64,000 bases of DNA, taken from contig BDTY01000050.1 of assembly GCA_002897955.1 (NCBI GenBank), positions 2,641 to 66,640 on the forward strand. The letters run 5' to 3'. This document shows positions 6,897 through 64,000 of this stretch, piece after piece. The notes below the pieces were generated by a model. It had not been told where the DNA came from. It saw only the letters and a list, made by a program, of their open reading frames with translations, and made no database searches. A program made the translations under genes and the position numbers. The number at the start of each line of letters is the position of its first letter. Position 1 is the first letter of the stretch. This DNA is from an archaeon BMS3Bbin15 (GTDB lineage: Archaea > Hydrothermarchaeota > Hydrothermarchaeia > Hydrothermarchaeales > BMS3B).

Positions 6897-7434
6897 ATTT
6901 TCCCTTTTATGATTTTAACGACCAAGCTCACCAGCCACTGTAAAGTGCCGGCAAATAGCGGTCCAGTTTAGCGCCTTGCTAGCGCTTTATATACATATAT
7001 GTTCCTTTATATCCATTGTAATGATATCTGAATCAGTCAATGAAACTGATGATTATAAATGTCTGTTTAACAAGCCCAAAAAACACATTTTTTGATTGTA
7101 AACCATCTAATTATTCACAATTGCCCTTTTTTAAATATCGACTACACCCTCATTTGACCTAACTAAAAAACTAAAATTGTTTTCATAAGATGATTTCGAT
7201 TATCTACGCAAAACAGACATTTAAAACGTAAAAGGACAATAGTTATATTGCGTATAACCATAATTAAGCAGGATTACATTATTTCTATGAATTTCAAATA
7301 TTTTCCAAAGACAAACAACACATATCTGATAAAATTCTTGTATTCTTCACATTCAATAATTGTTTTGGGGCCATTCACTTTCTTAACATGACCTTTCATT
7401 TTTCCTTCTTATTCTTTCAATCTCCTATCCATTT

Positions 7435-9276: not shown

Positions 9277-9602
9277 TTTTCTCTACCGTTTAAAATTGTT
9301 TTTAGTTCATCGTAATTCAGATATTTTTGTTTGGAAGCTATCTTTCCATTGAGGGTTATTATTGGAAGTATGTCTGGACCATTTTCTTTAACTAATTGAG
9401 AAATCTCCATGTTTTCAAGAAACATATTTATGTTGAAGGATATGCTTGCCCTTATTATTTCTATGTCCTTGAATTCCATTCGCAGTTTCTTCAATGACTC
9501 ATTAAATTCTATCAGCTCTTTATCCGGCTCTGGACCACAAACTCCTGTTGAACAGCACATTGCTCCTTCATAAATAATTAAAACATTTTTTATCATACTC
9601 AT
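9273..9602 (-). CDS. arsD: arsenic metallochaperone/repressor ArsD
   Basis: The N-terminal MCCSTGVCG motif matches the ArsD Cys12-Cys13-Cys18 site. The gene overlaps arsA by 4 nt. Confidence 0.7.
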   Translation of the reverse strand: MSMIKNVLIIYEGAMCCSTGVCGPEPDKELIEFNESLKKLRMEFKDIEIIRASISFNINMFLENMEISQLVKENGPDILPIITLNGKIASKQKYLNYDELKTILNGREK

Positions 9603-9781
9603 ACCTCAACAATTTGATTTTTTTAATCAATTTAGGATATTAGTATATGCGAATATATAACTATCTTTCGGTTGGTTGTAAAATAAACTACTGCTCCAGC
9701 TTTTTATAGGCACGAAAACTTTGTTGCCTTTGGTGAAAACTTCTCATGAGCCCGATTTTATACGCATCAATAAAAGTTAGT

Positions 9782-9905
9782 TCACAGTACCTTCACCTTC
9801 CAATCAAATATATCATTGGCACAAGTTATTCCTGAAATTGCAACAGCTTCAATTCCACCGCCGGGGAAAGTTGATGCACCTGCCAGATACAAACCCTTTT
9901 GCGGA
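9782..9905 (-). pseudogene. remnant of a phytoene-desaturase/amine-oxidase family FAD oxidoreductase (C-terminal ~35 aa only)
   Basis: The ORF fragment ends ...LYLAGASTFPGGGIEAVAISGITCAND, the conserved C-terminal FAD-binding motif of the CrtI family. The upstream reading frame is unrelated. Confidence 0.3.
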
Positions 9906-10232
9906 TTTGAGGAATTACAAGAAGTAAAGAAATTGCAAAAGGAATAACCACGCCTGACCTGTTTCCCATGCCGCACAGTATCCAGTAAACAATCCATGGA
10001 ATAAAAGAAACAAGAATGTAAAGCATCCCCGGCATTTTTCTTTTATTCTGCATTGTTCCAATGCCCATAATTATGTTCACCCCCTCTTTATTATACCTTT
10101 ATACTTTTTTACCTATTTGTTTATCTGCTTACTTATACTTTATTTTACTCACGTGCATATTCATATTATTGTGATTGTTAATCGAGCTTTCTATGAAAAC
10201 TTTCAAGATGTTAGAATAAAGGATAAGAATAT

Positions 10233-10306
10233 GCGGCCGTAGTATAGCCTGGCTAGTACACGAGCCTGCCACGCTTGTAGCCCGGGTTCAAATCCCGGCG
10301 GCCGCA
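10233..10306 (+). tRNA. tRNA-Gly (GCC)
   Basis: Cloverleaf readable by eye: acceptor GCGGCCG/CGGCCGC, anticodon loop CTGCCAC, T-arm CCGGG-TTCAAAT-CCCGG, discriminator A. No encoded CCA. Confidence 0.85.
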
Positions 10307-10318
10307 TTTAATTTATAC

Positions 10319-10648
10319 TTAAATAATGCTGAGAACCTTCTTCAAATTTTCATCTTTAAGCTTATAATATCTCCACTTCCCTGCCCGTCTCTCGTTCACG
10401 GCATCAATCTCTTTGAAGCTTCTCAGATGGTGGGAAACAAGCGTCTGGTCTATTTTTAAAGCTCTTTCGAGTTCGCATACGCAGCGCTCTTTATTTTTTA
10501 TCAGAAGGGCAATCTTTAACCTTATAGGGTTTGAGAGCAGCCTGAAAATTTTCAAAAACTCCTCCACATCCGCGACTTCCAGCTCCGTATCTTCAACAGA
10601 ACACATATCCATAATATTAGATTGATGCAAACATTTAAATACTTTCAT
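10319..10648 (-). CDS. arsR: ArsR/SmtB family metalloregulator
   Basis: A winged HTH with the CVCELERAL metal-binding motif ahead of the recognition helix. It is divergent from ACR3. The real start may be the internal MDMCSV. Confidence 0.75.
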
Positions 10649-10662
10649 GTGACAAAAGCTTC

Positions 10663-11724
10663 ATGTGTATTGCCATGAATAGTAATGTTACAAACAAACT
10701 TTCATTTCTCGACCGCTTCCTCACATTATGGATTTTTCTTGCCATGGCAGCAGGTGTATCTGCCGGTTACTTCATACCCAATATCGAGTCGTTCATAACC
10801 AGTTTTCAGGTAGGCACAACAAACATACCCATCGCTCTGGGTTTAATTCTGATGATGTATCCGCCACTAGCAAAGGTGCGATATGAAAATCTGGGAGCTG
10901 TATTCCGAGACAAAAAGATCCTGGGTTTATCGCTTGTGCAGAACTGGATTATAGGACCAATACTCATGTTTTTGCTTGCCATAATCTTTCTGCACAACTA
11001 TCCACAATTCATGGTTGGTTTAATAATGATTGGACTTGCAAGATGCATCGCCATGGTGATAGTGTGGAATGAGCTTGCCAGAGGTGATACAGAATATGCC
11101 GCAGGTCTGGTTGCCTTTAACAGCATCTTCCAGGTTCTCTTCTACAGTGTATATGCCTGGGTGTTTATTACAGTTCTACCACCCCTGTTTGGACTCAAAG
11201 GTAGTCTGGTGGATGTGAGCATGGCACAGATTGCAGAGAGTGTTTTTATATATCTGGGCATTCCCTTTGTTGCAGGTATACTCACCCGTTTTCTGCTTCT
11301 GAAACGTAAAGGTATAGACTGGTACCAGAGAAAATTTATTCCAAAAATCAGCCCGATTACACTCATTGCTCTGCTATTCACAATAGTGGTAATGTTCAGT
11401 CTGAAGGGAAAGCTCATTGTGCAGATTCCAATGGATGTTGTACGAATAGCCATTCCTCTTCTGATATACTTCGTAATTATGTTTTTCGTCAGCTTCTATA
11501 TGGGAAGAAAAGTCGGGGCAGACTACTCTAAAACAGCTGCTCTGTCTTTCACAGCAGCCAGCAATAACTTTGAGCTTGCAATTGCTGTTGCTGTTGCTGT
11601 TTTCGGAATAAACTCTGGCGCAGCATTTGCAGCCGTGATTGGACCGCTGGTAGAGGTACCTGTGCTTATCAGCCTTGTCAACGTATCCCTGTGGTTTCAG
11701 CATAAAATTTTTATAGATAGCTAG
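10663..11724 (+). CDS. acr3: arsenite efflux permease, ACR3 family
   Basis: 353 aa, about 10 TM segments. The N-terminus ([20 protein letters not shown]) is typical of ACR3/ArsB of the BART superfamily. Confidence 0.8.
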
Positions 11725-11844
11725 GGCAGAATCACCATTTCAATAGCAATTACAGTGCTTCCTGAGTTAATTTTATATTCTATACAACCTGTATCTTTAG
11801 ATGATTTGATGGAACTGGATATTGAAGAACAAAACCTGAAATGG

Positions 11845-12597
11845 ATGATTGAAACCACAGACCTGACAAAAAGATTTGGTAATTTTACTGCAGTAAAAAA
11901 TTTAAATCTCAGAGTGAAAAGAGGGGAGATATATGGATTTTTAGGCCCCAATGGTGCAGGTAAAACTACCACTATTAAGATGCTCAACTGCCTTTTAAAT
12001 CCCAGCAGTGGAAGTGCAAGGATTGCTGGTTTCGATATAAGAAAGGATGCTCTCAATGTAAAGGCGATAACAGGCTATCTGCCTGAGACACCCCTTCTGT
12101 ATGACAAGCTTACAGGAAAAGAATTTCTGGATTTCATTGCAGAGCTTTATGGTGTGGACGATGCCCGAAAGGAAAGAAAAATAAACGACCTTCTCAGGAT
12201 GTTTACCCTGACAGAAAAGGCTGACAGCCTGATTCAGGGATATTCTCATGGCATGCGGCAAAAAATAGGGATTGCAGCAGCCCTTATTCATGACCCGAAG
12301 GTTCTGTTTCTGGATGAACCTACCATGGGTCTTGACCCGAAAAGTGCCAGAATGGTAAAGGATATTCTGAAAGAACTTGTAAAGAGGGGAAGCACAGTTT
12401 TTATGTCCACCCATGTTCTGGAAATTGCGGAGAAGATGTGTGATGAGGTGGGAATAGTAAATCATGGGACTCTAATAGCCAGCGGCTCCATAGAAACATT
12501 ACGTAAGTCAGAACAGGGCAATTCACTGGAAGATATCTTCCTTGAGCTCACTGGTGGGCCTGAATACCAGGATGTAATGAGATATCTGGAGGATTGA
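11845..12597 (+). CDS. ABC transporter ATP-binding protein
   Basis: Walker A GPNGAGKTT, signature YSHGMRQK, Walker B LFLDEPTMGLD. The start is taken at MIETTDLTKRFG. The ORF track allows an earlier start at 11755. Confidence 0.7.
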   Translation: MIETTDLTKRFGNFTAVKNLNLRVKRGEIYGFLGPNGAGKTTTIKMLNCLLNPSSGSARIAGFDIRKDALNVKAITGYLPETPLLYDKLTGKEFLDFIAELYGVDDARKERKINDLLRMFTLTEKADSLIQGYSHGMRQKIGIAAALIHDPKVLFLDEPTMGLDPKSARMVKDILKELVKRGSTVFMSTHVLEIAEKMCDEVGIVNHGTLIASGSIETLRKSEQGNSLEDIFLELTGGPEYQDVMRYLED

Positions 12598-12598
12598 T

Positions 12599-14212
12599 AT
12601 GGGCGCCTCCCTGACCATACTTAAATATGAGCTAATATCTTTTCTGAACAGCTACCTTAAAACAGAGTGGGGATTAATAAAGGCAGTCCTTATCGGGATA
12701 GCTTCTTTTTCTATTGCATCCATATCCTTCATATTTTCATGGTTATTCTTCATGGGACTGAAACTTTCCACAAAAGGCGTGTCCATAGAGTCCAGTTTTC
12801 TTTCCATCTTCTTTCTTATTGTATTCACATTTGTGATACTGCAAGGCTTCTCCATTGCTCTTTATACCATGTTTCTCCAGTCAAATATTATCTTCCTCAT
12901 GAAGGCACCGGTTTCCATTGGAGCCATATTCAAATCAAAGCTCGTTCAGAATGTGGCGCTGAACTCTCTCATCCCTTTCCTTTTCGGTATACCGGCTGTT
13001 CTTGCATATTTTATTTCGTTTAATTTTCCCATTATTGCCTATGTTCTTCTTTTTCCTGTGTTTTTCGCTGTGATTGTAATACCTGCAGGAATAATTATGG
13101 TGCTTATCACGATTATAATGAGGTTTATCTCGGCTAAAAGAGCAAAAGAGTTTCTGGGACTTGCGGGAGCATTTGCTGGCGCTATGTTATATATTTTAAT
13201 AAATGTTTCAATGCCAGGTAGAATAGCTTTGAACTTTAAATCTAACATGAATATTCTAAAAACTGAGTTTTTACCAAGTTCATGGGCAAGTAGCCTGTTT
13301 TCCTCCTTAAAATATGGCTCGTGGAATTCCATTCTTTATGCCTTTCTATTATTCGGGACTGCCTCTGTTGTGGTAATAATCTCCCTTCGTACAATGGAAA
13401 AACTCTTTTTTCAGGGCTGGACTGAGAGCAGGGTCTCCACGTTCAAATCTAAGAGCTCTAAAAAATCATCCTACCTAAAAAGATTGTACAGCTTTCTGCC
13501 CAGGCCTGTTCGTGCCATAGCAATAAAAGACCTTAAATCCATGCCCAGGGACATTCAATTCTGGTCCAGGATGTTTTTCCCTCTGGCACTGATGATAATC
13601 ATTATAATGAACCCTGGCTTCAGCGGCAAAACAGGTGAAATGCAGTTTTTTTTAGACCTGCTTATCCTGGGTTTTGCTGCTATGACTTTCTCCAACAATC
13701 TGCTGACAGCATCAGTTGGTAGCGAAGGCAAAGCCTACTGGATACTTCACACTTCACCTGTAAAACCAGAGGCTATATTGAAGGGAAAGCTTTCAGCCGG
13801 CCTTCTTCCCTTACTTACTATCATTTTCATAATGGCTTCGATTATTGGTTTTCTTTCAAAGTTAGGATGGTCACAATTTGCCCTGCTAATACCTGTTTCA
13901 TGGTTTTTAACCTTTGGAATCTCCTCCATATCCATAGGTATTGGCGGAGCCTTTGCAAATTTTGAAAGTGAAAATCCCAGAAAGAAGGTAAATTTTCTGG
14001 GCTCAATTGCTTCGATGGTTCTCCCAGGTGGCTATCTCATAATTGCAGTTATTCTTCTTGCATCTCCCTATATTGCCAGATATTTCGGAAAAAATATACC
14101 TGTTCTCTATATTATATCCTGGGGCTTATTATTCCTCATGACCATTTTCATAAGCTATGTTTCCATCAAAATTGGGGCAAGAACACTGGGGACACGGGAA
14201 TTTAATTTCTGA
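12599..14212 (+). CDS. polytopic membrane protein, putative ABC-2 type permease partner
   Basis: 537 aa with more than 12 hydrophobic segments. It abuts the ABC ATPase with a 1-nt gap. Confidence 0.5.
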   Translation: MGASLTILKYELISFLNSYLKTEWGLIKAVLIGIASFSIASISFIFSWLFFMGLKLSTKGVSIESSFLSIFFLIVFTFVILQGFSIALYTMFLQSNIIFLMKAPVSIGAIFKSKLVQNVALNSLIPFLFGIPAVLAYFISFNFPIIAYVLLFPVFFAVIVIPAGIIMVLITIIMRFISAKRAKEFLGLAGAFAGAMLYILINVSMPGRIALNFKSNMNILKTEFLPSSWASSLFSSLKYGSWNSILYAFLLFGTASVVVIISLRTMEKLFFQGWTESRVSTFKSKSSKKSSYLKRLYSFLPRPVRAIAIKDLKSMPRDIQFWSRMFFPLALMIIIIMNPGFSGKTGEMQFFLDLLILGFAAMTFSNNLLTASVGSEGKAYWILHTSPVKPEAILKGKLSAGLLPLLTIIFIMASIIGFLSKLGWSQFALLIPVSWFLTFGISSISIGIGGAFANFESENPRKKVNFLGSIASMVLPGGYLIIAVILLASPYIARYFGKNIPVLYIISWGLLFLMTIFISYVSIKIGARTLGTREFNF

Positions 14213-50708: not shown

Positions 50709-50859
50709 GTTTGTAAAAGTATGGGGGTTGTACTACTAACTATATTTGAATGTAAAGAGGAGCACTGACTAAAATAGTATTTGAAGAGAATATAATAGAA
50801 AGGAGTAGAAATGCTTATAAAACCAGGTATAAAAATATAATGGAACTGGGTGTAAAATA

Positions 50860-51186
50860 ATGTTTATAATAAAGTCTCTGGCCCTCTTTGTCCTTGCAGG
50901 TCTTGCTGAGATTGGAGGTGGATATCTTGTGTGGCAGTGGTATCGAGAGAGTCACAGCATTTATATTGGTGTCCTGGGTGCCATAATCCTTGTGCTTTAC
51001 GGCATAATTCCCACCTTCCAGCCTGCCAGTTTCGGCAGGGTATATGCTGCTTATGGCGGTATCTTCATCGTTATGGCCATATTATGGGGCTGGATGATAG
51101 ATAAAAAGCCTCCTGATATCTTTGAACTAATAGGTGGGGGTATATGCGTGATTGGAGTATTCATAATAATGTACTGGCCAAGGTGA
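50860..51186 (+). CDS. UPF0060 (YnfA) family small membrane protein
   Basis: 108 aa, four TM segments. RVYAAYGG motif identical to E. coli YnfA. Confidence 0.7.
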   Translation: MFIIKSLALFVLAGLAEIGGGYLVWQWYRESHSIYIGVLGAIILVLYGIIPTFQPASFGRVYAAYGGIFIVMAILWGWMIDKKPPDIFELIGGGICVIGVFIIMYWPR

Positions 51187-52553: not shown

Positions 52554-53236
52554 TAAAAGCTCTTCTGTTTGATATAGACGATACTCTCTACGACAGCACA
52601 ACGCTTGCTGAAATGGCAAGACGTAACTCGGTTAGAGCAATGATAGACTCAGGGCTGCCGTTTAGAGATGAGCAGGAGCTGTATGAGAAGCTCCTGCACA
52701 TAATCAAAACCTTTGGCTCTAACTATCCGAGGCACTACGACGAACTTCTCAGATATTTAAATATCCCCTGGAACCCTAAAATTGTTGCAGCAGGTATTGT
52801 TGCCTATGAGCATACCAAGTTTGGCTATCTCAAGCCCTTTCCGGGTGTTATCCCTTCTCTTATCAGGCTCAGAGAGAAGTTCAGGCTTGGTGTTGTATCC
52901 AACGGCATAGCAATAAAGCAGTGGGAGAAGCTTATCGCTCTTGGACTTAGCCATTTTTTTGATATTTTTGTTACCTCAGGAGAAGCTGGTGTTGAGAAAC
53001 CTTCAGTTGAGATTTTTACTCTTGCAGCAGAGAAGCTCGGGCTTGACCCGGAGGAGTGCCTGATGATAGGTAATAAAGTTGATGTGGATATAACAGGGGC
53101 AGGGAATGCTGGAATGAAAACTATATGGTTCAGAAGGGAAGAAAATGCTTATCTGAAGCATGAAGGAGAAAGTGCTGACTATATAATAGAAAGCTTCTTT
53201 GAACTCATACCTCTCATAGAAGAGATTATTCAATAA
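52550..53236 (+). CDS. HAD-superfamily hydrolase
   Basis: Motif I LFDIDDTLYD, motif II VVSNG, motif IV GNKVDVD. Confidence 0.65.
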   Translation: MIKALLFDIDDTLYDSTTLAEMARRNSVRAMIDSGLPFRDEQELYEKLLHIIKTFGSNYPRHYDELLRYLNIPWNPKIVAAGIVAYEHTKFGYLKPFPGVIPSLIRLREKFRLGVVSNGIAIKQWEKLIALGLSHFFDIFVTSGEAGVEKPSVEIFTLAAEKLGLDPEECLMIGNKVDVDITGAGNAGMKTIWFRREENAYLKHEGESADYIIESFFELIPLIEEIIQ

Positions 53237-53627
53237 TAACTCCGCCGTCTTTGAGTATGGTTATTTCAATTTTTTCTTTTACAACTCTACCCTGAATTTT
53301 ATCAGGAACACTCCTTTTAATCTTATCAATCAGCGAGAGAGTATTTTCCTTTACCTTTATATTGCATATGGTGGCGCAGGAGAAAACCTCTTTTGGTACA
53401 TTGAAGATATCCTCGCCATCCTTAATTTCAATTACCTTAGGAGAACCGATTTTCCTGAATAGGTCAAGAGTTGCATTTGCCTTCTCTACATTTTTTCTTG
53501 CTCTCTTTTCTGTTATGCTTATATTTGCTCTTGTTGTACCCAGCATACCTGCAATTGCAGCCTGAGTATGTCCCTTTGCTCTCAGTTCAAGAATTTTTAT
53601 CTGCATGGGTGTGAGAAAGGTATTCAT
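53226..53627 (-). CDS. tfx: DNA-binding protein Tfx
   Basis: LTPMQIKILELRAKGHTQAAIAGMLGTTRANISITEKRA matches the Tfx LuxR/sigma-70-region-4-like HTH. Confidence 0.65.
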   Translation of the reverse strand: MNTFLTPMQIKILELRAKGHTQAAIAGMLGTTRANISITEKRARKNVEKANATLDLFRKIGSPKVIEIKDGEDIFNVPKEVFSCATICNIKVKENTLSLIDKIKRSVPDKIQGRVVKEKIEITILKDGGVIIE

Positions 53628-53690
53628 GGCTATTCCTTGTCTTGAAGAGACTTAAAGTTTTCAATAGTTAAATTCAGTTAATATGTTGCT

Positions 53691-54491
53691 ATGCTTACAA
53701 AGAGAATTATACCCTGTCTGGATGTCAAGGATGGAAGAGTGGTTAAGGGCGTGCATTTTAAGAATCTGAGAGATGCTGGTTCGCCTGTGGAACTTGCTCA
53801 GGTTTACAATGAGCAGGGGGCAGATGAACTTGTTTTTCTTGATATAAGTGCAAGCCATGAAGGCAGAAAGACGATGGTTAAGGTGGTTGAGGCTACAGCT
53901 GACCAGATTTTTATTCCTCTTACAGTTGGAGGGGGAATAAGTGAGGTTGAGGATATAAGGGGAATTCTCAAGGCGGGTGCGGATAAAGTTGCCATTAATA
54001 CTGCAGGCATTAAAAATCCTGAGATTCTTTCTGGTGGAGCCAGACGTTTTGGAAACCAGTGTATTGTATCAGCTATTGATGCAAGAAGGGTATATGAAAA
54101 TAGAGAGGATAGAGATGTTATTGAAACTTCCAGGGGAAAATGCTGGTTTGAGGTTTATATATATGGTGGGAGAGAACCTACTGGTATAGATGCTGTGGAA
54201 TGGGCTAAAAGGGTTGAGAAGCTGGGTGCTGGTGAGATTCTATTGACCAGTATGGATGCTGATGGTACAAAGGATGGCTTTGATATTGAACTTACCAGAA
54301 CTATTTCTGAAGCTGTCAATATACCGGTTATAGCCAGTGGGGGTGCAGGTGAACTTGAGCATTTCTATGAAGCCTTTGCTTCTGCGAGGGCTGATGCAGC
54401 GCTGGCTGCTTCAATCTTTCATTATCACGAATATACTGTTGGGGATATTAAGAGGTATCTTAAGGAAAAGGGCATTCCTGTGAGGCTTTGA
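53691..54491 (+). CDS. hisF: imidazole glycerol phosphate synthase cyclase subunit HisF
   Basis: [17 protein letters not shown]-terminus and (beta/alpha)8 motifs. Confidence 0.9.
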
Positions 54492-54495
54492 TAGA

Positions 54496-55098
54496 ATGAG
54501 GATAGCTATAGTAGACTACGGAATGGGAAATCTTAGGAGTGTTTATAGAGCTTTTGAATATGCCGGGGCCAGGCCTGTAATAACTTCCAGTGTCGAGGAG
54601 ATTGAGGCCAGCGATGCTTTGATTCTCCCTGGCGTGGGAGCCTTTGAGGATGCTATGGCAAATCTTCTGCCTCTGAGAGAGGTTATAGTTGATAGTGCCG
54701 GGAAGAAGCCTATTCTGGGAATATGTCTTGGGCTGCAGCTTTTCTTCAGTGAGAGTGAGGAGTCCAGACTGGGAGAGAGTGGGCTGGATATTATTAAGGG
54801 TAAGGTGGTCAGGCTTCCCAAAAATGTTAAAATTCCACATATGGGCTGGAACAGTATTGAAATTAAGAAGGAGAGTAGAATTCTCGAGGGGATTAAGGAT
54901 GGTGAGTACTTTTACTTTGTCCACTCTTACTATGCTGTGCCTCAGGAGGATGTTGTGGTTGCTACCACAGGTTATTCTGTTGATGTTCCTGCTATTCTGG
55001 AGAAGGACTCGGTTTTTGCAACCCAGTTCCACCCTGAGAAGAGCGGAAGGGCAGGTTTGAAAATAATTAAGAATTTCGTGGAGATTGCGAGGGAGTAG
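54496..55098 (+). CDS. hisH: imidazole glycerol phosphate synthase glutaminase subunit HisH
   Basis: MRIAIVDYGMGNLRSV, catalytic Cys in GICLGLQ, HPEKS. Confidence 0.85.
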   Translation: MRIAIVDYGMGNLRSVYRAFEYAGARPVITSSVEEIEASDALILPGVGAFEDAMANLLPLREVIVDSAGKKPILGICLGLQLFFSESEESRLGESGLDIIKGKVVRLPKNVKIPHMGWNSIEIKKESRILEGIKDGEYFYFVHSYYAVPQEDVVVATTGYSVDVPAILEKDSVFATQFHPEKSGRAGLKIIKNFVEIARE

Positions 55099-55114
55099 TT
55101 ACAAGATAATCACT

Positions 55115-56746
55115 TTACGTTCTAAAAAGTTCAATAAACTCGAATTTCTCCACGTCAAACAGCCCTTTATCACTCAGCTTTATTCTGGGAATGACCAGCA
55201 AAGCCATAAATGAAAGTGTCATAAAAGGTGATTTCAGTTCAGAACCAAGAGATTTTGCCATACTATCTACTTTAATATATTTTTCTGCTACTTCCGAATA
55301 GCTCCTATCACTCATAAGGCCTGCTATTGGTAAAGGTAAGACAGCCTCCTCATCAGATACAGCACATATACCTCCATTGTTCTCAATAATCAGATTGACA
55401 GCCCTGCATATATCTCTGTCAGATACCCCGACAGCTATAATATTATGGGAATCATGAGCCACACTTGAGGCAATAGCTCCTTCTGTAAGACCAAAATTTT
55501 TCACAAAACCAGTTCTCACCACACTCTTCCCATAGCGATTCACCACAGCTATTTTCAGTATATCTCTCTCAATATCAGATACAGCATATCCATCAGCTAT
55601 ATATGGAGGAAGAATAAGTTTACCTGTTACAATCTGGCCATCCAGTGCTTCAATAACAACCATATCACCTCTGCTATACTTGACTCTGAAATCCTCTGTT
55701 TTCTTCTCCTCTGCTTTAAAATTATTCATAACTTCAGGGGTTTTTCTGTTGATGAATGTTCTACCTTCTTCTGCCACAATTTCTCCGTTTATAACTGTTT
55801 TGAGTACATTAAAATCCTTCAGATTATCCACAATAAGAAAATCAGCAGAGTCCCCTCTTTTCAGCAGTCCAGCATCCAGGCTGTAGTGAAGTACAGGATT
55901 TACACATGCAACCTTTAAGACTTTTATTGCGTCGATACCATAATTTACCGCCCTTTTCACAATACTGTTAATATGTCCATTTACCAGGTCATCAGGGTGC
56001 TTATCATCACTGCAGAACATAAAGTTTTTATAATGCTCTTCCAGAAGAGGAATAAGCTCCTCAAAGTTACTTACTGCTGAACCTTCCCTGATGTTCAATA
56101 TCATACCAAGGCCTAGCTTTTCTTCTGCTTCATCTCTGGTAAGGCATTCATGGTCGGTTGATATTCCAGAGCTTATATATTTCTCAAGTTTCTGTCCTCT
56201 CAATCCGGGGGCATGGCCATCTACTGGCTTTGAGTATCTTTTAGAAAGGCTGATCTTTTTAATCAGCTCGGGATTGCCTTCCAGAACGCCAGAGAAGTTC
56301 ATCACCTCACCCAGGCATTTTATTTCACCCAGCTTCAGAAGTTCTTCCACCTCCACGGTACCAAGAACTGCACCGCTGCTATCAAAGTCTGTTGCAGGCA
56401 CACAGGAGGGAGCGCTGAAGTATAGTTTCATGAGCACAGCTTTTGAATCTTCTATCATATATTTCACACCCTCTATGCCAAGAACATTGGCAATCTCGTG
56501 AGGGTCGCACACTGCACCAACTGTACCATGAATTACTGCTACTCTGGCAAACTCTGAAGGTGGAAACATGGAACTTTCAATGTGAATATGAGAATCTATA
56601 AACCCTGGAATAATATAATTTTCATAATTTTTCTTTTCCTGTGAAATCTCCAGTATTCTGCCATGAGATATTTTAAGGGTGCCCGGGTAAACTCTGGAGT
56701 TCAGGACATCAACTATATTGCCAGAAAGTGTTTTTATCTTACCCAT
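55115..56746 (-). CDS. ade: adenine deaminase
   Basis: 543 aa. PGFIDSHIHIESSM metal-binding motif, and the size and architecture of the Ade family. Confidence 0.75.
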   Translation of the reverse strand: MGKIKTLSGNIVDVLNSRVYPGTLKISHGRILEISQEKKNYENYIIPGFIDSHIHIESSMFPPSEFARVAVIHGTVGAVCDPHEIANVLGIEGVKYMIEDSKAVLMKLYFSAPSCVPATDFDSSGAVLGTVEVEELLKLGEIKCLGEVMNFSGVLEGNPELIKKISLSKRYSKPVDGHAPGLRGQKLEKYISSGISTDHECLTRDEAEEKLGLGMILNIREGSAVSNFEELIPLLEEHYKNFMFCSDDKHPDDLVNGHINSIVKRAVNYGIDAIKVLKVACVNPVLHYSLDAGLLKRGDSADFLIVDNLKDFNVLKTVINGEIVAEEGRTFINRKTPEVMNNFKAEEKKTEDFRVKYSRGDMVVIEALDGQIVTGKLILPPYIADGYAVSDIERDILKIAVVNRYGKSVVRTGFVKNFGLTEGAIASSVAHDSHNIIAVGVSDRDICRAVNLIIENNGGICAVSDEEAVLPLPIAGLMSDRSYSEVAEKYIKVDSMAKSLGSELKSPFMTLSFMALLVIPRIKLSDKGLFDVEKFEFIELFRT

Positions 56747-56864
56747 AATGCTAGATATAAATTCAGAAATAAAAGCCTGCTGGATATTGATGCTGTGGTT
56801 GTGTATAATATTTTTGTGAGTAAAACATAAGCCAGCATATTCCCATGATTGATATTGACCCTTC

Positions 56865-57533
56865 TTATTCTATCCTGAGTAGATATCCGTTATATCTTAG
56901 CCATTTCTTATAGATTTCATAATCTTGCATTAACGTTTTAACTTTAAGCCAGAATGATTTTGAGTGATTTCTTTCTTCCAGATGGATTAATTCATGAACA
57001 ACAACATAATCTATAACAGATAAAGGCGCCATTATTAAGCGCCATGAAAAGTTCAGGTTGCCATTTGGACTGCAGGAGCCCCATCTTTTCTGAGCGTTGG
57101 TAATGTTTATTCTGCTGTATTTCAATCCTTTTTTGCTGGCATACCACTGAACTCTTTCAGATATTTTTTCATGGGCTTTTTCTTTATACCATTTAATAAA
57201 AATCTCTTTTGCCAGTATTTGATATTCTTTTGAAAGATAAAATCGATTTTCAAATTTTAAAGGAGTTTTGTCGTCCACCAAGGTTAATCTGTAACTCTCG
57301 CCAAGATACAGAAAATCTTCTCCGTCTACAAACTTCTTTCTGGAAAATTTTGGGTTTCTTGATAGGATTTCCTTTTTCTTTTTTTCTATCCACTTTTTAT
57401 GTTTCAAAACAATATTTTCGATGGTGAGTGTATCAATACCAAAAGGTGCTCTTACTATTAAAGTTGCATCATCGGTTATTTGAATTGCAATGCCAGTTCT
57501 TTTCGTTCTTATTATCTCATCTATTTCTTCCAT
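56865..57533 (-). CDS. DUF45 / YgjP-like zinc metallohydrolase (WLM-type HExxH)
   Basis: WGSCSPNGNLNFSWRL and HELIHLEERNHS motifs. The gene is AT-rich. Confidence 0.65.
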   Translation of the reverse strand: MEEIDEIIRTKRTGIAIQITDDATLIVRAPFGIDTLTIENIVLKHKKWIEKKKKEILSRNPKFSRKKFVDGEDFLYLGESYRLTLVDDKTPLKFENRFYLSKEYQILAKEIFIKWYKEKAHEKISERVQWYASKKGLKYSRINITNAQKRWGSCSPNGNLNFSWRLIMAPLSVIDYVVVHELIHLEERNHSKSFWLKVKTLMQDYEIYKKWLRYNGYLLRIE

Positions 57534-57794
57534 TTTATTCTCCGTGTATGTGGCATGCAGGTTCAGCAGTTTCTTTGATTTTATCTCTTTTGTGTGTTAT
57601 TGTTTTTCAAAATCAATCGAGTAATTCCTTCTCTATAAGGTGAGCATGGTGATGACGAAAAATTTATGTGTTGTAAAACCCAATTAGTATAGGAGGTAAA
57701 TATATGAGGTGGGAGATTTGGAATTTGGATGTTTTTTTATTTTATGGATTGTATAATAGTCGTAAAATACAGTTTAAATCAGGAGGTGGAAGAT

Positions 57795-59720
57795 ATGAAA
57801 GAATTTGATACAAGGGGCAGGAGTATAGAGGATTCAACCATAGACCCTGCCAATGTGGAACTTTTGAAAATAGCAAAAAAGGATGGAATAGATACAGCTT
57901 TTGACAGGGTTCAGAAGCAGGAGCCAAAGTGCAAATTCTGCGAGGAAGGAGTCTCTTGCAGGAACTGTAATATGGGCCCATGTAGAATTACCCAAAATTC
58001 ACCCAGAGGGGTATGCGGTGCCACGGCTGATACTATGGTTGCCAGAGGACTTCTCCAGAATACAATAGGAGGGGCGGCATCCCATATGGACCATGCAAGA
58101 CATGTGGCTATACTTTTACGGGAGGCTGGCATGGGTAATGCTCCATATAAGATTAAGGATGAGGCAAAGCTTAGAAGGATTGCCGGGGATCTAGGAATTG
58201 AAGGGGCTGACACAAAGGATAAAAAGCTGCTTGCCATGGAGGTGGCAAACAGGGCTCTGCAGGACCTGGGAAGGCAGCACGGCGAAGATGCCATGGACTG
58301 GATTAAACTGCATGCCCCTGAGGAGCGTATTGATACATGGAAAAAACTTGGCATTCTACCATTCGGTGGAAATGTTGTGGTAAATGAAGGTATGCACAGG
58401 AGAACTATGGGTGTGGATGCAGACCCTGTAAACATAATACTTGGTATGCTGAAAACAGGTATTGTCGATGGGTATGGCGGCCTTGCTATGTCAACGGATT
58501 TGCAGGATATTCTTTTTGGAAGCCCAAGTCCAAAAATTTCAGAGGCTGGGCTCGGTGTACTCAGGGAAGACTATATCAATATTTCCACACATGGCCATGT
58601 GCCCCTGCTCTCAGAGAAGATTGTGGATGCAGCCGAAGAGCTGGAGGAAGAGGCAATAAAGGCTGGAGCAAAGGGTATAAATGTGGTGGGACTTTGCTGT
58701 ACTGGAATAGAGCTACTGGAAAGAAAGGGGATTCCCATAGCAGGAAATGAATTGAATACTGAGACTGCCATTATAACCGGGGCTATGGAAGCTGTGGTGG
58801 TAGATTATCAGTGTATATATCCGGGGCTTGTGCCTGTGGCAGATAATTTCCATACTAAAGTTATCACCACTGCCGATATCGCAAAGATTCCTGGCGCAGA
58901 ACACATAGAGTTCAATGAAAAAGAAGCTGATGAGGTTGCTAAAAAGATTGTGAGACTGGCAATAGATAACTTCAAGAATAGGGACCCGAAGAGGGTTAAC
59001 ATACCAAATGTAAAGTCCAAAGTTATGGCAGGTTTTACCCCTGAGGTTTTGCTGGCGGTACTCTCTAAAATTAACAAAGAGGACCCGTTAAAACCTCTGG
59101 TGGACGCTATCACTGAAGGTAAAATCCGTGGTGCAGTGGCTATTGTGGGCTGTAATAATCCAAGGGTAAAACATGATTTCATGAATGTTGGGATTGCCAG
59201 AGAGCTCATAAAGCGCAATGTACTTGTGATATCTACTGGATGCGTTGCCACAGCCCATGCAAAGTCAGGGCTTATGAATCCTGACACAGCCTATAAGGAG
59301 GCAGGAGAGGACCTTCAGGGTGTATTGAAAGTTCTGGGCAGGGCTGCTGGTATGGAGGCTCTGCCACCTGTACTAAACTTTGGCTCATGTGTGGACAACT
59401 CCAGGATAGGAGACCTTTTGAAGGCACTCTCTGACAGGATTGGTGTGCCAATAAAGGACCTCCCTGTGCTTGCCAGCGCACCGGAATATACAACTGAGAA
59501 AGCACTTTCTATAGGCACATGGGCAGTAAGCCTTGGGGTTACCACCCATGTAAATCCGCCGCCGAGAATTTCAGGCAGCCAGCTTGTGACAAAAATACTG
59601 ACAGAGGATGCGGAAGGCCTGGTCGGGGCCACTGTTTTTACCGGCTCTGACCCTGTGGAAACAGCCAGAGTAATGATAGAAAAGATAGAAGAAAAAAGAA
59701 GAAAACTGGGCTTGAATTAA
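57795..59720 (+). CDS. cooS: Ni-dependent carbon monoxide dehydrogenase catalytic subunit CooS
   Basis: N-terminal Cys cluster CKFCEEGVSCRNCNMGPCRI (B/D-cluster ligands). Length about 640 aa. The start is set at MKEFD, preceded by GGAGGTGG. Confidence 0.8.
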   Translation: MKEFDTRGRSIEDSTIDPANVELLKIAKKDGIDTAFDRVQKQEPKCKFCEEGVSCRNCNMGPCRITQNSPRGVCGATADTMVARGLLQNTIGGAASHMDHARHVAILLREAGMGNAPYKIKDEAKLRRIAGDLGIEGADTKDKKLLAMEVANRALQDLGRQHGEDAMDWIKLHAPEERIDTWKKLGILPFGGNVVVNEGMHRRTMGVDADPVNIILGMLKTGIVDGYGGLAMSTDLQDILFGSPSPKISEAGLGVLREDYINISTHGHVPLLSEKIVDAAEELEEEAIKAGAKGINVVGLCCTGIELLERKGIPIAGNELNTETAIITGAMEAVVVDYQCIYPGLVPVADNFHTKVITTADIAKIPGAEHIEFNEKEADEVAKKIVRLAIDNFKNRDPKRVNIPNVKSKVMAGFTPEVLLAVLSKINKEDPLKPLVDAITEGKIRGAVAIVGCNNPRVKHDFMNVGIARELIKRNVLVISTGCVATAHAKSGLMNPDTAYKEAGEDLQGVLKVLGRAAGMEALPPVLNFGSCVDNSRIGDLLKALSDRIGVPIKDLPVLASAPEYTTEKALSIGTWAVSLGVTTHVNPPPRISGSQLVTKILTEDAEGLVGATVFTGSDPVETARVMIEKIEEKRRKLGLN

Positions 59721-59726
59721 GGACAA

Positions 59727-59754
59727 TTTTTTCCCCCTTTTTTTCTTTTTTTTT
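59727..59754 (+). terminator. oligo-T tract (archaeal intrinsic terminator) after cooS
   Basis: TTTTTTCCCCCTTTTTTTTCTTTTTTTTT immediately downstream of the stop. Confidence 0.4.
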
Positions 59755-60022
59755 AGAACTCGAATTTTATTGAAACTAACATCGGGCTTAAGGGAAGTTT
59801 TGCCGTAGGCAAATTTGAGTGGAAGAAACTACAAGACTTCGCAGTCTCTTAATGCTTGTTATATTTGTCTGAGCGATGACCAAGGGCTAGGGGCGTAGGA
59901 TTTTTTGTTTTTAGAAAAAAGAAAATAAGGGGCATCTTGTTTTGGTTCTTTTTCTAAAAGAACATTTAGGGTGTCTTTAAAAGAGAAAATTTAATAAATA
60001 TGGTGATTATATTATAATTATA

Positions 60023-62818
60023 ATGAATGAAAAAGAAACTAGAGAGCAGTTAATAGACAAACAGTTAAAAACTGCTGGATGGCTTAAGAAGTATATTAAA
60101 GAAGAAGTAAATTCTGTTAAATCTAATTTTAAAACTAAGGAATATGTGCTGTCTCAAGGTAGAGAGGATAATTCTGGAAGATTTATAGATTACTTACTGC
60201 TGGCTGAAGATAATAGTCCAATTGCTTTAATTGAAGCAAAAAAATTCTCTGTTTCAGAAGATAAAGGAAGGGCTCAATCAAGAACTTATCTTAAAAATAT
60301 TGAATCTCAAACAAAGGAGAAAATTCCGATTTTTTTAACTAATGGTAATAAATGGCTTCTTATAACTCAGGACGGAGTTGAGAGTTATGTTAGCGGACCT
60401 TTTTCTCAATCTGACTTAAAGAGAAGAATGGAACTTTTTAGGAAGAGAAGAGACCCGACTAAAATAAACATTGGGAAGATTGTAGATAGACCAAAGAGCA
60501 TTCTTATTGTAAAACAAATGATGGAACATATTCAGATTGGGTATAAATCTGCTTTAATCAATATGGCTACTGGAACAGGAAAAACAAGAGTTGCTATGGC
60601 TGTGATTGATGTTCTTTTAAGGTCAAATATTGTAAGAAATGTTTTATTCATTGCTGATAGAATTGCATTGGCTAATCAGGCAAAATCTGCTGGCTTCAAG
60701 GAGTTTTTTTCTGAGGCAGTTGTTGATTTAAGAGAAAGTCCGAAGAGTTTTCCAAATGGACTATATGTTTCAACAGTTCAAACGTTAAGGAGTGGGAAAA
60801 CTAAGAAATTTTTTGAAAGTTTTAGTCCTGGCTTTTTTGATTTGATTATTTTTGATGAAGCCCACAGGTCAATTTATGATCCAAATAGATTAATTTATAA
60901 ATATTTTGATGCAATAAAAATAGGTCTTACAGCAACACCCTCAACAGCCGAAAGTAGAAACACTTATGAGTTATTTGAATGTGAGGGAGATAAGCCAACA
61001 GTTGAATATTCTTATGATGAAGCTATAAGAGATGGAGTTTTAGTTCCATATAACGCAGAGATGATTGATACAAAGATTCTTTCGTTAGGAATAGACGGGG
61101 CAAGTTTAACAAGACAGCTTCAAGACCAATTAAGAAAACAGGAAGAAGACCCAAATTATACTATGCTTCCAGGTTCTTCATTCGCTAAGGTTTTCATGGA
61201 TGATAAAACCAATGAGTTAGTAATTAGGGAGTTTATGAATAGGTGCTACAAATCTGATGAAGGAAAACCTGCAAAAACGATTTTCTTTTGTGCAAATATC
61301 AAACATGCAGAGCATATCAAGAAAATTTTTAATAAGTTATTTCCTGCTGTAAGTAATGAAGTTCAAATGATTGTTTCTGATATATATAGGTATACTGACG
61401 AGATTTCAAGATTCAAACTTGATTCCGAGCCAAGAATTGCTTTGTCTGTTGGTGTTTTAGATACTGGAATTGATATTCCAGAAGTATGCAATTTAGTTTT
61501 TGCAAAACCTGTTTTTTCAGGAATAAGGTTCTGGCAAATGCTCGGAAGAGGAACTAGAAACTTAAGATCATGTAAACATAAGGAATGGCTTCCAAACAGA
61601 GAGAAAAACGATTTTTTGATTTTAGACTTTACTATTGGCGGACATTCAAATATAAAATATCATCATCTTAAAGAAGCTAAAGAGAGAAAACCTGGAACAG
61701 ACACTCTTACAAAAATTTTCTTGAATAGGGTTGAATTATTAAAGAAAGGATTAAATGCTAAACAGAAAGAATTTGTTGAAACTAAAATTGTTTATGAAGT
61801 TGATTCTTTAGATAAGGATTCTTTTATTGTAAGAGAAAAACTTCCGTTAATTAATAATATTTTAGATACTGTAAAAAATCCCTCAACCCCTATGATTGTT
61901 GCAGAGAGAACTGCTGAATATGGTGAAAAGGTTAAGAAAAGAGTGCAAAGAAAGTTTGATTTAAAAGATTACGTCAATGAATTAAGAAACGAAATTGCTC
62001 CTCTTATTTCATTAAATCCTGGAAAGAATCCTCTTGTTTCTTCATTTATTCTTCAAGTTGAAAAATTGTTTAAGTTTATCTTAGATGATGATAAAGATGG
62101 AATATATAAAATTCAAGAACATGTAAAGGAAAATATGGAGAATATTTTGCAGAAAGATAATTTAGAAGCCGTGCAAGAAAAGAAGGAAGATATTTTGAAA
62201 GTTTTTCAAGAGAATTTCTGGGATGAATTGACTTTTGAAGATGTTGAATTTATTATAATTGAGCTTGCTCCATTGATGGTTTATTATGAAAAAAATCCTA
62301 AGAGGATGCTTCAAGTTGATGCTCCTGATATAATTTTGAAAGTTGAGGAATTCAAAAAAGAAGTCAAGGAAGATGAAGAATTAAAAAAATTCTTAGAGAC
62401 AAACTCTCTTGTTAATAAGATTAGGAAAGGAGAAGGTATTACTCCTTCTGAGCTTCTTGAGTTAGAAAAGCAATTAAGCGCATTGAGACCTGAGATGACT
62501 ATTGACAATGTTCAGAGAATTCTAAAGATTGACTTCTTGCTCTTCATAAGAGAGATATTGAGTTTAAAGCAGGAATATGACCCTCGCGTTTTGATAGAAA
62601 GAGAATTTAATAAACATATTATTGAGAAAAATCAGAATTATACTTCTGAGCAGATTAAGTTTTTGCAGATTTTGAAAAAGGTTTTTGCTCGAACTAAACA
62701 CATTGAATTAAAGGATTTTACTGTTCCGCCTCTTTCTAATGAAAGACCTCTTGACAAGTTTCAGGATTCTGAGTTGCAGAAGATAGTTATTGAGTGTAAT
62801 AAGATTAAGATGATGTGA
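60023..62818 (+). CDS. type I restriction enzyme HsdR-like nuclease-helicase (no adjacent hsdM/hsdS in the window)
   Basis: 931 aa. The N-terminus (TREQLIDKQLKTAGW, then D...IEAKK) is a PD-(D/E)xK nuclease. SF2 helicase motifs I MATGTGKT, II FDEAH, III LTATP, VI QMLGRGTR. The C-terminal 370 aa are K/E-rich and unassigned. Confidence 0.7.
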   Translation: MNEKETREQLIDKQLKTAGWLKKYIKEEVNSVKSNFKTKEYVLSQGREDNSGRFIDYLLLAEDNSPIALIEAKKFSVSEDKGRAQSRTYLKNIESQTKEKIPIFLTNGNKWLLITQDGVESYVSGPFSQSDLKRRMELFRKRRDPTKINIGKIVDRPKSILIVKQMMEHIQIGYKSALINMATGTGKTRVAMAVIDVLLRSNIVRNVLFIADRIALANQAKSAGFKEFFSEAVVDLRESPKSFPNGLYVSTVQTLRSGKTKKFFESFSPGFFDLIIFDEAHRSIYDPNRLIYKYFDAIKIGLTATPSTAESRNTYELFECEGDKPTVEYSYDEAIRDGVLVPYNAEMIDTKILSLGIDGASLTRQLQDQLRKQEEDPNYTMLPGSSFAKVFMDDKTNELVIREFMNRCYKSDEGKPAKTIFFCANIKHAEHIKKIFNKLFPAVSNEVQMIVSDIYRYTDEISRFKLDSEPRIALSVGVLDTGIDIPEVCNLVFAKPVFSGIRFWQMLGRGTRNLRSCKHKEWLPNREKNDFLILDFTIGGHSNIKYHHLKEAKERKPGTDTLTKIFLNRVELLKKGLNAKQKEFVETKIVYEVDSLDKDSFIVREKLPLINNILDTVKNPSTPMIVAERTAEYGEKVKKRVQRKFDLKDYVNELRNEIAPLISLNPGKNPLVSSFILQVEKLFKFILDDDKDGIYKIQEHVKENMENILQKDNLEAVQEKKEDILKVFQENFWDELTFEDVEFIIIELAPLMVYYEKNPKRMLQVDAPDIILKVEEFKKEVKEDEELKKFLETNSLVNKIRKGEGITPSELLELEKQLSALRPEMTIDNVQRILKIDFLLFIREILSLKQEYDPRVLIEREFNKHIIEKNQNYTSEQIKFLQILKKVFARTKHIELKDFTVPPLSNERPLDKFQDSELQKIVIECNKIKMM

Positions 62819-62881
62819 ATTTGTAAACTTAAGTTTACAAATATAAGAAGCTTTATAAAGTACTTTGAATAACCTTCTATT

Positions 62882-63283
62882 ATGGCAATAGAAAAATGGG
62901 ATAATAAGTATGATGTTAAGACGGTATCAGCCAAACTTACTCAAAGAGATTTTTCTCATTTTAAGGATTATTGTGATAAAAAAGGCGTGAAAGTTTCTAC
63001 CCAACTTAAACAATTGATAAAGCAAGAGATTGATAATCCTATTTCTGTTAATGTCGCAGGAAAAAGTTTGTTTGTATATAATCCTGCAAGAGATAATTTC
63101 AGCTGGAGAGCAATTTTAGATAAGGGAATTATATCTTATATTGAAGATGATTTAAATTTTGAGTTTTTATCACAGTTAAAGGAAGCAATAGATAAAGCAA
63201 TAGATGAAAGAAACACATTCATTCAGAAGACAAAAGATGATTCTGTTTCAATACCAGGGCAGATTGTGAGGAGGGGGTTATGA
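62882..63283 (+). CDS. hypothetical protein
   Basis: 133 aa, AT-rich. Its stop overlaps the start of the next gene (ATGA). Confidence 0.3.
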   Translation: MAIEKWDNKYDVKTVSAKLTQRDFSHFKDYCDKKGVKVSTQLKQLIKQEIDNPISVNVAGKSLFVYNPARDNFSWRAILDKGIISYIEDDLNFEFLSQLKEAIDKAIDERNTFIQKTKDDSVSIPGQIVRRGL

Positions 63284-64000
63284 AAGAAGAATTAATAGTT
63301 TCAAATAATTCAATTAAAGATAAAATTCATACAATCAGAGGGCTTCAGGTAATACTTGATAGTGATTTAGCTGTACTTTATGATGTTCCAACAAAAGTAT
63401 TAAATCAAGCAGTCAAAAGAAACATTGATAGATTTCCTATAGATTTTATGTTTCAGCTAACAAAAGGAGAAGCAAAAAACTTGATGTCGCAAAATGCGAC
63501 TTCAACTATTTTTAGTTTAAGGTCACAAATTGTGACCATAAAAAATAAAAGAGGCGCTCATAGAAAATATTTACAATACGTTTTCACTGAACAAGGCGTT
63601 GCTATGCTCTCTGGAATTCTGAGAAGTAAGAAGGCGATTGAAGTGAGTATTCAGATAATGAGAGCTTTTATTTCAATGCGTAAATTTATTTTTCAAAATG
63701 CTGAAATATTTAGAAGGTTAGATACTGTTGAAAGAAAACAATTAGAATCTCAAATAAAAACAGATAAAAATTTTGAACGAATTTTTGAGGCAATTGAAAG
63801 TAAAGAACTTGTTAAAAAACAAGGGCTCTTTTTTGACGGACAGATATTTGATGCTTATAAGTTTGTTTCTGATTTAATAAGAAGCGCAAAAAAATCAATT
63901 GTGTTAATTGATAATTTCGTTGATGATTCTGTTTTGACATTGTTTTCTAAAAGAAGAATTAATGTGGGTGTGGTAATTTATACAAAAATCATCACAAAAC
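63280..64000 (+). CDS. ORF6N-domain protein (phage antirepressor N-terminal-like), 3' end outside window
   Basis: This ORF is not in the supplied track because it runs off the window. ATG at 63280 is preceded by GAGGAGGGGG. The N-terminus (IRGLQVILDSDLAVLYDVPTKVLNQAVKRNIDRFPIDFMF ... RSQIVT...RGAHRKY..YVFTEQGVAMLSGIL) matches the ORF6N/KilA-N-like fold. Confidence 0.55.
   Translation, partial: MKEELIVSNNSIKDKIHTIRGLQVILDSDLAVLYDVPTKVLNQAVKRNIDRFPIDFMFQLTKGEAKNLMSQNATSTIFSLRSQIVTIKNKRGAHRKYLQYVFTEQGVAMLSGILRSKKAIEVSIQIMRAFISMRKFIFQNAEIFRRLDTVERKQLESQIKTDKNFERIFEAIESKELVKKQGLFFDGQIFDAYKFVSDLIRSAKKSIVLIDNFVDDSVLTLFSKRRINVGVVIYTKIITK

Follow-up and report, generated by a model that had tools for sequence, protein, structure and literature searches.

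A predicted ribbon-helix-helix controller and a variable ORF6N cargo gene in a type I restriction-modification operon of an uncultured archaeon

The AT-rich right end of a 64-kb stretch of DNA from the uncultured archaeon BMS3Bbin15 (the window, meaning this whole stretch) is the 5' two-thirds of a complete, horizontally acquired type I restriction-modification (R-M) operon with the gene order hsdR, p133, ORF6N, hsdS, hsdM. The second gene encodes a 133-amino-acid (aa) protein, p133, that accompanies hsdR, hsdS and hsdM in related loci. We put the probability that p133 is an operator-binding regulator of the operon at roughly 0.75, a prediction drawn from its N-terminal ribbon-helix-helix (RHH) profile and from repeats that vary with it 5' of its gene. 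The ORF6N gene, a member of the catalogued candidate family PDC-S05, is variable cargo and occupies one of this lineage's three insertion slots. What is new here is an RHH controller candidate with its operator, together with the domain architecture of the PDC-S05 protein; the novelty is modest.

A type I operon that extends beyond the window

From about 59750 to 64000 the GC fraction was 0.28–0.34 (~30%), against 0.43–0.49 in cooS, the carbon-monoxide dehydrogenase gene, and a window mean of ~0.41. This agrees with the strongly AT-rich island that a preliminary description of the window had placed from the cooS terminator onward. Three co-oriented open reading frames (ORFs) occupy the plus strand of this block: hsdR at 60023–62818 (931 aa), p133 at 62882–63283 and the ORF6N gene, which starts at 63280 and runs off the window. 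The stop codon of p133 and the ORF6N start overlap in an ATGA at 63280, as had been described. An exact-sequence look-up of the 133-aa protein led to a 71,962-bp metagenome contig, and the stretch taken from it (L001) begins with 11,119 bases that are 99.98% identical to window 52882–64000. L001 holds the whole ORF6N gene (10399–11325, 308 aa) and, beyond it, hsdS (11322–12455) and hsdM (12449–13918). All five genes lie on one strand with intact reading frames (5/5). The last four overlap by 4–7 nt and are translationally coupled. The low-GC block spans the operon (L001 ~7000–14000), and GC climbs again beyond it.

Because hsdS and hsdM directly follow ORF6N on the 99.98%-identical contig, the locus is, to judge from its sequence, almost certainly a complete and ordinary type I R-M operon that the window edge cuts, and one already annotated as such in GenBank. 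The exact HsdR protein is GBE54551.1, labelled 'type-1 restriction enzyme R protein'; identical BMS3Bbin15 proteins are labelled 'ORF6N domain protein' and 'putative type I restriction enzyme M protein'. The preliminary description had rightly found no methyltransferase or specificity subunit in the ORF list of the 64-kb window and had proposed extension beyond it. Of its two readings, a type I system with accessory genes between hsdR and an hsdM/S pair beyond 64 kb is exactly the layout of L001. The other held that a lone HsdR-like nuclease-helicase, working with an antirepressor-like ORF6N partner and independently of a methyltransferase, forms an undescribed stand-alone module. This drew on the missing hsdM and hsdS, but both genes follow directly with overlapping start and stop codons, the very outcome that the description had named as its refutation. 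HsdR is encoded by the first gene of a complete operon, and a stand-alone module is now extremely improbable.

The restriction, modification and specificity subunits were all assigned by Pfam, PADLOC and NCBIfam (E values in brackets). HsdR comprises a PD-(D/E)xK nuclease, a superfamily 2 (SF2) helicase and a C-terminal EcoEI_R_C domain. Its motifs could be read directly: D56...E71-x-K73, GTGKT184, DEAH278 (II), TAT303 (III) and QMLGRGTR505 (VI). Together with matches to Pfam ResIII (2e-31), SWI2_SNF2 and Helicase_C, and to the solved HsdR structure PDB 3H1T (7.5e-33), they confirm the HsdR-type nuclease and complete SF2 helicase core that had been recognized in the 931-aa protein. Its 370-aa C-terminal region had been called unassigned; residues 786–927 match Pfam EcoEI_R_C (2.8e-9), and the PADLOC type I REase model (REase_I) spans residues 2–892 (9e-91). 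HsdS (377 aa) contains two Methylase_S stretches, corresponding to two target recognition domains (TRDs), and matches PADLOC Specificity_I over its full length (1.8e-49). HsdM (489 aa) matches N6_Mtase (1e-66), HsdM_N (8e-13) and PADLOC MTase_I (2.6e-179) and carries an NPPF motif at residue 283. The suggested PADLOC query was thus productive for the REase, MTase and Specificity models, and also returned PDC-S05 for the ORF6N protein.

These architectures are those of the EcoAI/EcoEI type I group (families IB/ID), in which HsdR likewise joins a PD-(D/E)xK nuclease and SF2 helicase to EcoEI_R_C, HsdS has two TRDs, and HsdM combines HsdM_N with an NPPF-bearing N6_Mtase. The present HsdR nevertheless scored far below the equivalog cut-off of NCBIfam NF046051 (EcoAI/FtnUII HsdR; 239.8 versus 550 bits), which marks it as related rather than equivalog. 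The operon also differs from that group in its order R-x-S-M with a predicted internal promoter, its archaeal host, the extra conserved gene p133 and three cargo slots.

The conserved fourth gene and its predicted operator

A metagenome scan for p133 homologues gave 71 loci (32–100% identity), with the upstream gene visible in 57. An hsdR homologue lay 5' of p133 on the same strand in all 57, directly adjacent in 44 and separated by 1–2 cargo ORFs in 13. Downstream, p133 precedes hsdS-hsdM, and the R...S-M arrangement with p133 between hsdR and hsdS was seen without exception among those of the 71 loci that extend far enough to reveal it. ORF6N was mostly absent from these loci, a further point against the stand-alone module considered above. 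Among the first homologues seen, the next gene was hsdS, a DUF1016/YhcG nuclease or an unknown gene, and the preceding gene, wherever identifiable, was an hsdR with EcoEI_R_C. Many loci are tight R-p133-S-M sets in which p133 is often coupled directly to hsdS. With 111 clusters at 50% identity in a set of 1.84 billion representative proteins, the family is a small one. The p133 gene is a conserved fourth gene of this type I lineage.

Profile comparisons assign the N-terminal ~45 residues of p133 to an RHH domain. The window protein matches DUF6290 (2.7e-4) and a RelB model; among 80 diverse family members, 17 match DUF6290, 8 match RHH_1, and others match RHH_5/7/9, RelB or RepB-reg. The family profile searched against the PDB returned ParG (0.0056), DinJ (0.013), AvtR (0.013) and SvtR (0.015), followed by NikR, CopG-family proteins and Arc. 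All of these matches fall on profile positions 2–64; each is weak alone, and they are mutually consistent. The strand-helix-helix profile is thus like that of RHH regulators (CopG, Arc, ParG, NikR and the archaeal-virus proteins AvtR/SvtR) and RHH antitoxins (RelB, DinJ, ParD). Unlike them, p133 has a family-specific C-terminal domain of ~80 aa, with near-invariant G60, Y66, F73, W75, R110 and P125, for which the family profile detected no relative in the PDB, and its genetic partner is an R-M operon, not a toxin or a plasmid.

The predicted p133 operator is a perfect 24-bp palindrome (ATTTGTAAACTT followed by AAGTTTACAAAT) at 62819–62842, directly after the hsdR stop. The window contains no longer perfect palindrome. 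The motif has a single exact copy both in the window and in L001, apart from one unrelated match with three mismatches at 50850–50869; a second copy 5' of hsdR was looked for in both and not found. Nine nucleotides after the palindrome, on the plus strand, lies the TATA box TTTATAAA (62852–62859), which begins 30 nt 5' of the p133 ATG and is centred ~26 nt before it. In archaeal promoter geometry a TATA box so centred fits a leaderless transcript, and because of this spacing TTTATAAA would be an internal archaeal promoter giving a leaderless p133-ORF6N-hsdS-hsdM transcript.

Both elements recur across the family. Among 56 non-identical p133 upstream regions, with 200 dinucleotide shuffles as control, an exact repeat of at least 7 nt was present in 37, compared with 7.8 ± 2.5 (maximum 14) in the shuffles. 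A TATA-like octamer started at -31 to -29 in 50 of the 56. Proteins of the RHH fold typically bind repeats, whether inverted or direct. The repeats fall into four classes, and repeat class tracks the predicted DNA-reading beta-strand of p133 across the 56 loci. Class A, TTGTAAAC-N4-GTTTACAA (GTAAAC..GTTTAC), accompanies the strand (V/F)(K/R)TVSAKL at 20 loci, and class B, GGTTAACC-N3-GGTTAACC, accompanies NKVV(M/L)AKL at 25. Class C, GTCAACC-N2-GGTTGAC, is paired with YKSISAKI (7 loci) and class D, TTATCTTTAA..TTAAAGATAA, with FKSVTTKL (2 loci), leaving two loci outside all four classes. One locus, L067, carries GGTAAACC twice as a direct repeat and was filed by pattern in class B, yet its strand VKTVSTKL is class-A-like and matches the GTAAAC core; as read from these motifs, it fits the half-site/strand rule rather than its class label. 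At L068 and L070 a second, different palindrome (TAGCAACTTAAGTTGCTA) stands between the class-D repeat and the TATA box, which may point to a further binding site or a further regulator.

The position of the palindrome admits another explanation, in which it is an RNA hairpin or terminator of hsdR and p133 is a structural or assembly subunit, such as an HsdR-binding adaptor or a restriction-alleviation factor. In tight loci the palindrome does abut the hsdR stop; hsdR precedes p133 on a common strand at each locus with a visible upstream gene, and the conserved C-terminal domain of p133 is without an assigned role. The 13 loci with a cargo gene (0.6–0.9 kb) between hsdR and p133 decide otherwise for the palindrome: there the repeat and TATA box stand directly 5' of p133 and not after hsdR, and an hsdR terminator was rejected on this ground. 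Since repeat and TATA box stay with p133 across cargo insertion, they belong to the p133 promoter. The direct repeats of L067 are not easily explained by an RNA hairpin, a TATA box at -30 at a constant distance of ~9 nt is in keeping with a promoter element, and the N-terminus of p133 is RHH-like. We consider the hairpin and subunit explanation unlikely.

Several points count against p133 as an operator-binding regulator. Its structure model is poor (predicted local distance difference test score 62), the individual RHH matches are weak (E 0.006–0.1), and the window protein falls below the Pfam curated cut-off. The co-variation of protein and operator is partly confounded by shared ancestry. 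DNA binding by p133 is a sequence-based prediction, and the sign of regulation is not readable from sequence. The operator lies upstream of the transcription factor B recognition element (BRE) and TATA box, where archaeal activators often bind.

As an operator-binding regulator, p133 would bind the repeat as an RHH dimer or tetramer and autoregulate the internal leaderless promoter, which would drive p133, any cargo, hsdS and hsdM. It would thereby set the level of the M2S core, on which modification and restriction both depend. Repression is somewhat favoured over activation, because most RHH autoregulators are repressors; it would permit a fast methylase burst when the operon enters a new host, and homeostasis thereafter. 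The protein may instead be an activator like the type II C proteins, because the site lies upstream of BRE/TATA.

The ORF6N protein as cargo

Inserted genes were found in each of three slots of the p133-type operons: between hsdR and p133 in 13 of 57 loci, between p133 and hsdS in 23 of 46, and between hsdS and hsdM in 17 of 35. The inserts belong to at least 50 unrelated families, among them GNAT, DUF3800, Bro-N, YhcG, RusA and AlbA_2 ATPase. Many cargo genes at L016–L086 are without a family match, and several encode predicted membrane proteins. In BMS3Bbin15 the cargo is the ORF6N gene (63280–64000, plus strand), of which the window holds the first 240 of 308 codons, the end lying at window-equivalent 64206.

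The ORF6N Pfam domain scored 9e-32, and the PADLOC PDC-S05 model PDLC04869 was matched end to end (3.1e-123, residues 4–307 against model positions 9–300 of 306). The protein consists of an ORF6N DNA-binding domain, a long helix and, in its C-terminal half, a phospholipase D (PLD)-like domain that fold comparison places in the PLD superfamily. The ORF6N family profile had no match among PDB sequences at E ≤ 10, so the PLD assignment rests on fold comparison only. The family motif, H265-D-R267-x4-D272-x7-G280-A-S282, occupies the place of the PLD HKD motif and is a conservative variant of it; the His, Asp and Gly are invariant. Measured against PLD nucleases (Nuc, NucT, BfiI, NgoAVII, the SauUSI nuclease domain and Zucchini), the protein has HxR(x)4D(x)7GxS in place of their canonical HxK(x)4D(x)6GSxN, with Arg replacing Lys and the Asn absent, and its PLD-like domain is fused to ORF6N without a sequence-level PDB match. 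PLD nucleases build one active site from two subunits, as in Nuc and BfiI, and for this reason a dimeric DNA-directed phosphodiesterase is the most economical interpretation. The ORF6N protein would then act as a dimeric DNA-binding PLD-type phosphodiesterase or nuclease, an independent defence effector merely sharing expression with the operon. We judge the chances of an independent nuclease-type effector to be about even.

PDCs are candidates defined by their embedding in BREX, DISARM or type I R-M loci (Payne et al., 10.1101/2024.01.29.577857), and the present gene resembles PDC-S05 both in its full-length model match and in its embedding in a type I R-M locus. One PDC-S05 representative, described in a preprint with a RhuM domain, was reported to lower T7 and T5 plating ~1000-fold in E. 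coli. Our ORF6N protein gave no RhuM match and differs in this from the tested representative; the ORF6N plus PLD-like architecture was worked out in this analysis. PDC-S05, ORF6N and RhuM were not found in the supplements of two PDC papers, and a literature search for ORF6N together with type I restriction returned nothing. The effector interpretation is weakened by three observations: the PLD motif is non-canonical (R for K, no GSxN), the best structural match is to a pseudo-enzyme, FAM83, and the sole PDC-S05 phenotype comes from a preprint and from one representative with a RhuM domain that is unmatched here.

The ORF6N family has more than 8000 relatives, and gene neighbourhoods were taken from the best 80 genome matches (53–68% identity to the query). 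These span DPANN archaea, Methanosarcinales, Bacteroidota, Campylobacterota, Desulfobacterota and candidate-phyla bacteria. Profiles for HsdM and HsdR, once iterated, also match 1800-aa methyltransferase-SNF2 fusions and Lhr-like helicases, so only bona fide M-ORF6N-S-R embeddings were counted: at about 13 of the 80 loci the gene is flanked by hsdM and hsdS of another type I system. Roughly half of the 80 lack an R-M-like neighbour. In Bacteroidota the ORF6N-PLD gene lies 0.4–4.6 kb 5' of genes for ~1800-aa fusions of an N6-methylase and an SNF2 helicase, and in DPANN and Methanosarcinales archaea it adjoins Lhr-like helicases. Examples outside type I loci are L130 (12067–17481) and L087 (4746–7601), with similar arrangements at L122, L132–L138, L088, L090 and L157.

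This distribution bears on two further explanations. The ORF6N protein might assist the type I enzyme as an accessory, or it might be an antirepressor left behind by a mobile element and have no part in defence. PHROG phage anti-repressor matches (4e-25) point that way, as do the many family loci without an R-M-like neighbour or near methyltransferase-SNF2 fusions and Lhr-like helicases, and the reported phenotype is not from this ORF6N subfamily. Against this stand the 53–68% identity kept across archaeal and bacterial phyla, the invariant PLD-like motif, the repeated appearance of the family, in unrelated type I systems, at the slot flanked by hsdM and hsdS, and the one PDC-S05 representative with a reported phenotype. 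An accessory or antirepressor role is possible, and we give it clearly less weight than an independent effector.

The other explanation pairs p133, as RHH antitoxin, with ORF6N-PLD, as nuclease toxin, in a toxin-antitoxin (TA) or abortive-infection cassette inserted as a unit in the R-M operon. The layout is like that of type II TA systems: a small RHH protein with RelB/DinJ/ParD-like matches is followed by an ATGA-coupled, nuclease-like gene. Conserved co-occurrence is, however, missing. ORF6N follows p133 in only 4 of the 71 p133 loci, and no p133 homologue was found in any of the 80 ORF6N-family genome loci. More than 90% of p133 loci are thus without ORF6N, often with p133 coupled directly to hsdS, and the >8000 ORF6N relatives compare with 111 p133 clusters. 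A TA cassette is very unlikely. The p133 protein is not the ORF6N partner, as the preliminary description had implied; it travels with hsdR, hsdS and hsdM, with or without ORF6N.

More speculative, and in our view rather doubtful, is a picture in which the C-terminal domain of p133 senses a signal (free HsdR, unmethylated DNA or infection) and switches the internal promoter in front of hsdS-hsdM and of the cargo in the three slots, so that the lineage, archaeal and largely DPANN-type, would be a regulated 'chassis' for exchangeable defence genes, or in which ORF6N-PLD cooperates with the translocating type I enzyme.

Island borders and relation to known regulators

At the left edge of the AT-rich block a T-rich run (59727–59755, plus strand) follows the cooS stop (59718–59720). 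From the sequence and the GC drop, it is likely the archaeal oligo-T terminator of cooS. On the sister-strain contig L002, homology to the window breaks at ~59752 and resumes at ~59979. The last ~70 nt 5' of hsdR are common to L002 and the window in alignment and include the TATA-like element TTTAATAAAT (59990–59999, plus strand), 33 nt 5' of the hsdR ATG. This is a putative hsdR promoter, which would apparently give hsdR a TATA-like element of its own. The extended loci contained no tRNA gene, and the precomputed Pfam labels of their called genes included no integrase-type family, so there is no defined mobile-element border. A scan for sigma-70 promoters and intrinsic terminators gave 41 hits against 33 expected and is uninformative for archaeal DNA.

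Three sister-strain contigs (L002–L004), compared with window 55000–64000, showed ~95% identity in adenine deaminase and cooS and 99% across the R-M genes. They carry ~1 kb extra between cooS and hsdR, with two small minus-strand ORFs, and an additional 178–188-aa gene without a family match between hsdS and hsdM. The identity pattern suggests recent exchange of the R-M block or turnover of cargo.

Just 5' of cooS, a 0.33-GC patch contains a YgjP-like (PF01863) gene (56865–57533, minus strand). YgjP-like-type peptidases are often linked to type I R-M islands, and this gene may be a remnant of the same acquisition as the R-M block. The island RptR-RMS-DarTG-M48 offers a comparison for such peptidase linkage (PMC12255303). 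On the other side, outside the window, L001 14259–16252 (window-equivalent ~67140–69133) holds 134-aa and 105-aa ORFs that match the N-terminal and middle parts of the PADLOC type III Mod model PDLC03633, with two MNT/HepT TA pairs (PDC-S09 matches) between them. The layout resembles that of a type III mod gene interrupted by, or decayed around, inserted TA pairs.

Few dedicated type I regulators are known. One of them, RptR, represses type I R-M defence islands in Gammaproteobacteria and was not described until 2025 (PMC12255303). Like p133 it is a small dedicated DNA-binding protein tied to a type I R-M system within an island with embedded cargo, and its binding to repeats in the promoter driving its own gene and the hsd genes is comparable to what is predicted for p133 (PMC12255303). 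RptR is, by contrast, a 79-aa all-helical helix-turn-helix (HTH)-like protein encoded at the head of a bacterial operon, whereas p133 has 133 aa, an RHH profile and an extra domain, and its gene lies between hsdR and hsdS behind an archaeal TATA promoter. The hsd locus of Mycoplasma gallisepticum carries a C-family HTH gene (PMC12707154). This gene and the type II C proteins share with the predicted p133 circuit an autogenous regulator inside the R-M unit and a palindromic operator just 5' of its own promoter (PMC12707154). C proteins are of the Xre-type HTH fold and usually precede and control the R gene, whereas the only matches of p133 are of RHH type and its gene stands after hsdR and before S-M, which places p133 outside the C-protein family. 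By analogy, p133 is a candidate functional counterpart of C proteins and RptR and a member of neither family. An archaeal R-M review searched for a controller made no mention of one, and a limited search of the searchable literature found no description of the p133 family.

Type I transcriptional control is little documented, and a 2025 review found "surprisingly little information" on it (PMC12707154). For the ORF6N protein, the ORF6N plus PLD-like architecture turns PDC-S05 into a concrete biochemical hypothesis, and the three-slot p133-type lineage is a compact source of further embedded defence candidates. The four predicted operator classes with their matching beta-strand motifs are ready-made natural specificity variants. 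Together, p133 and its co-varying operator at a predicted leaderless archaeal promoter offer a testable model for the expression of an archaeal type I system and its cargo.

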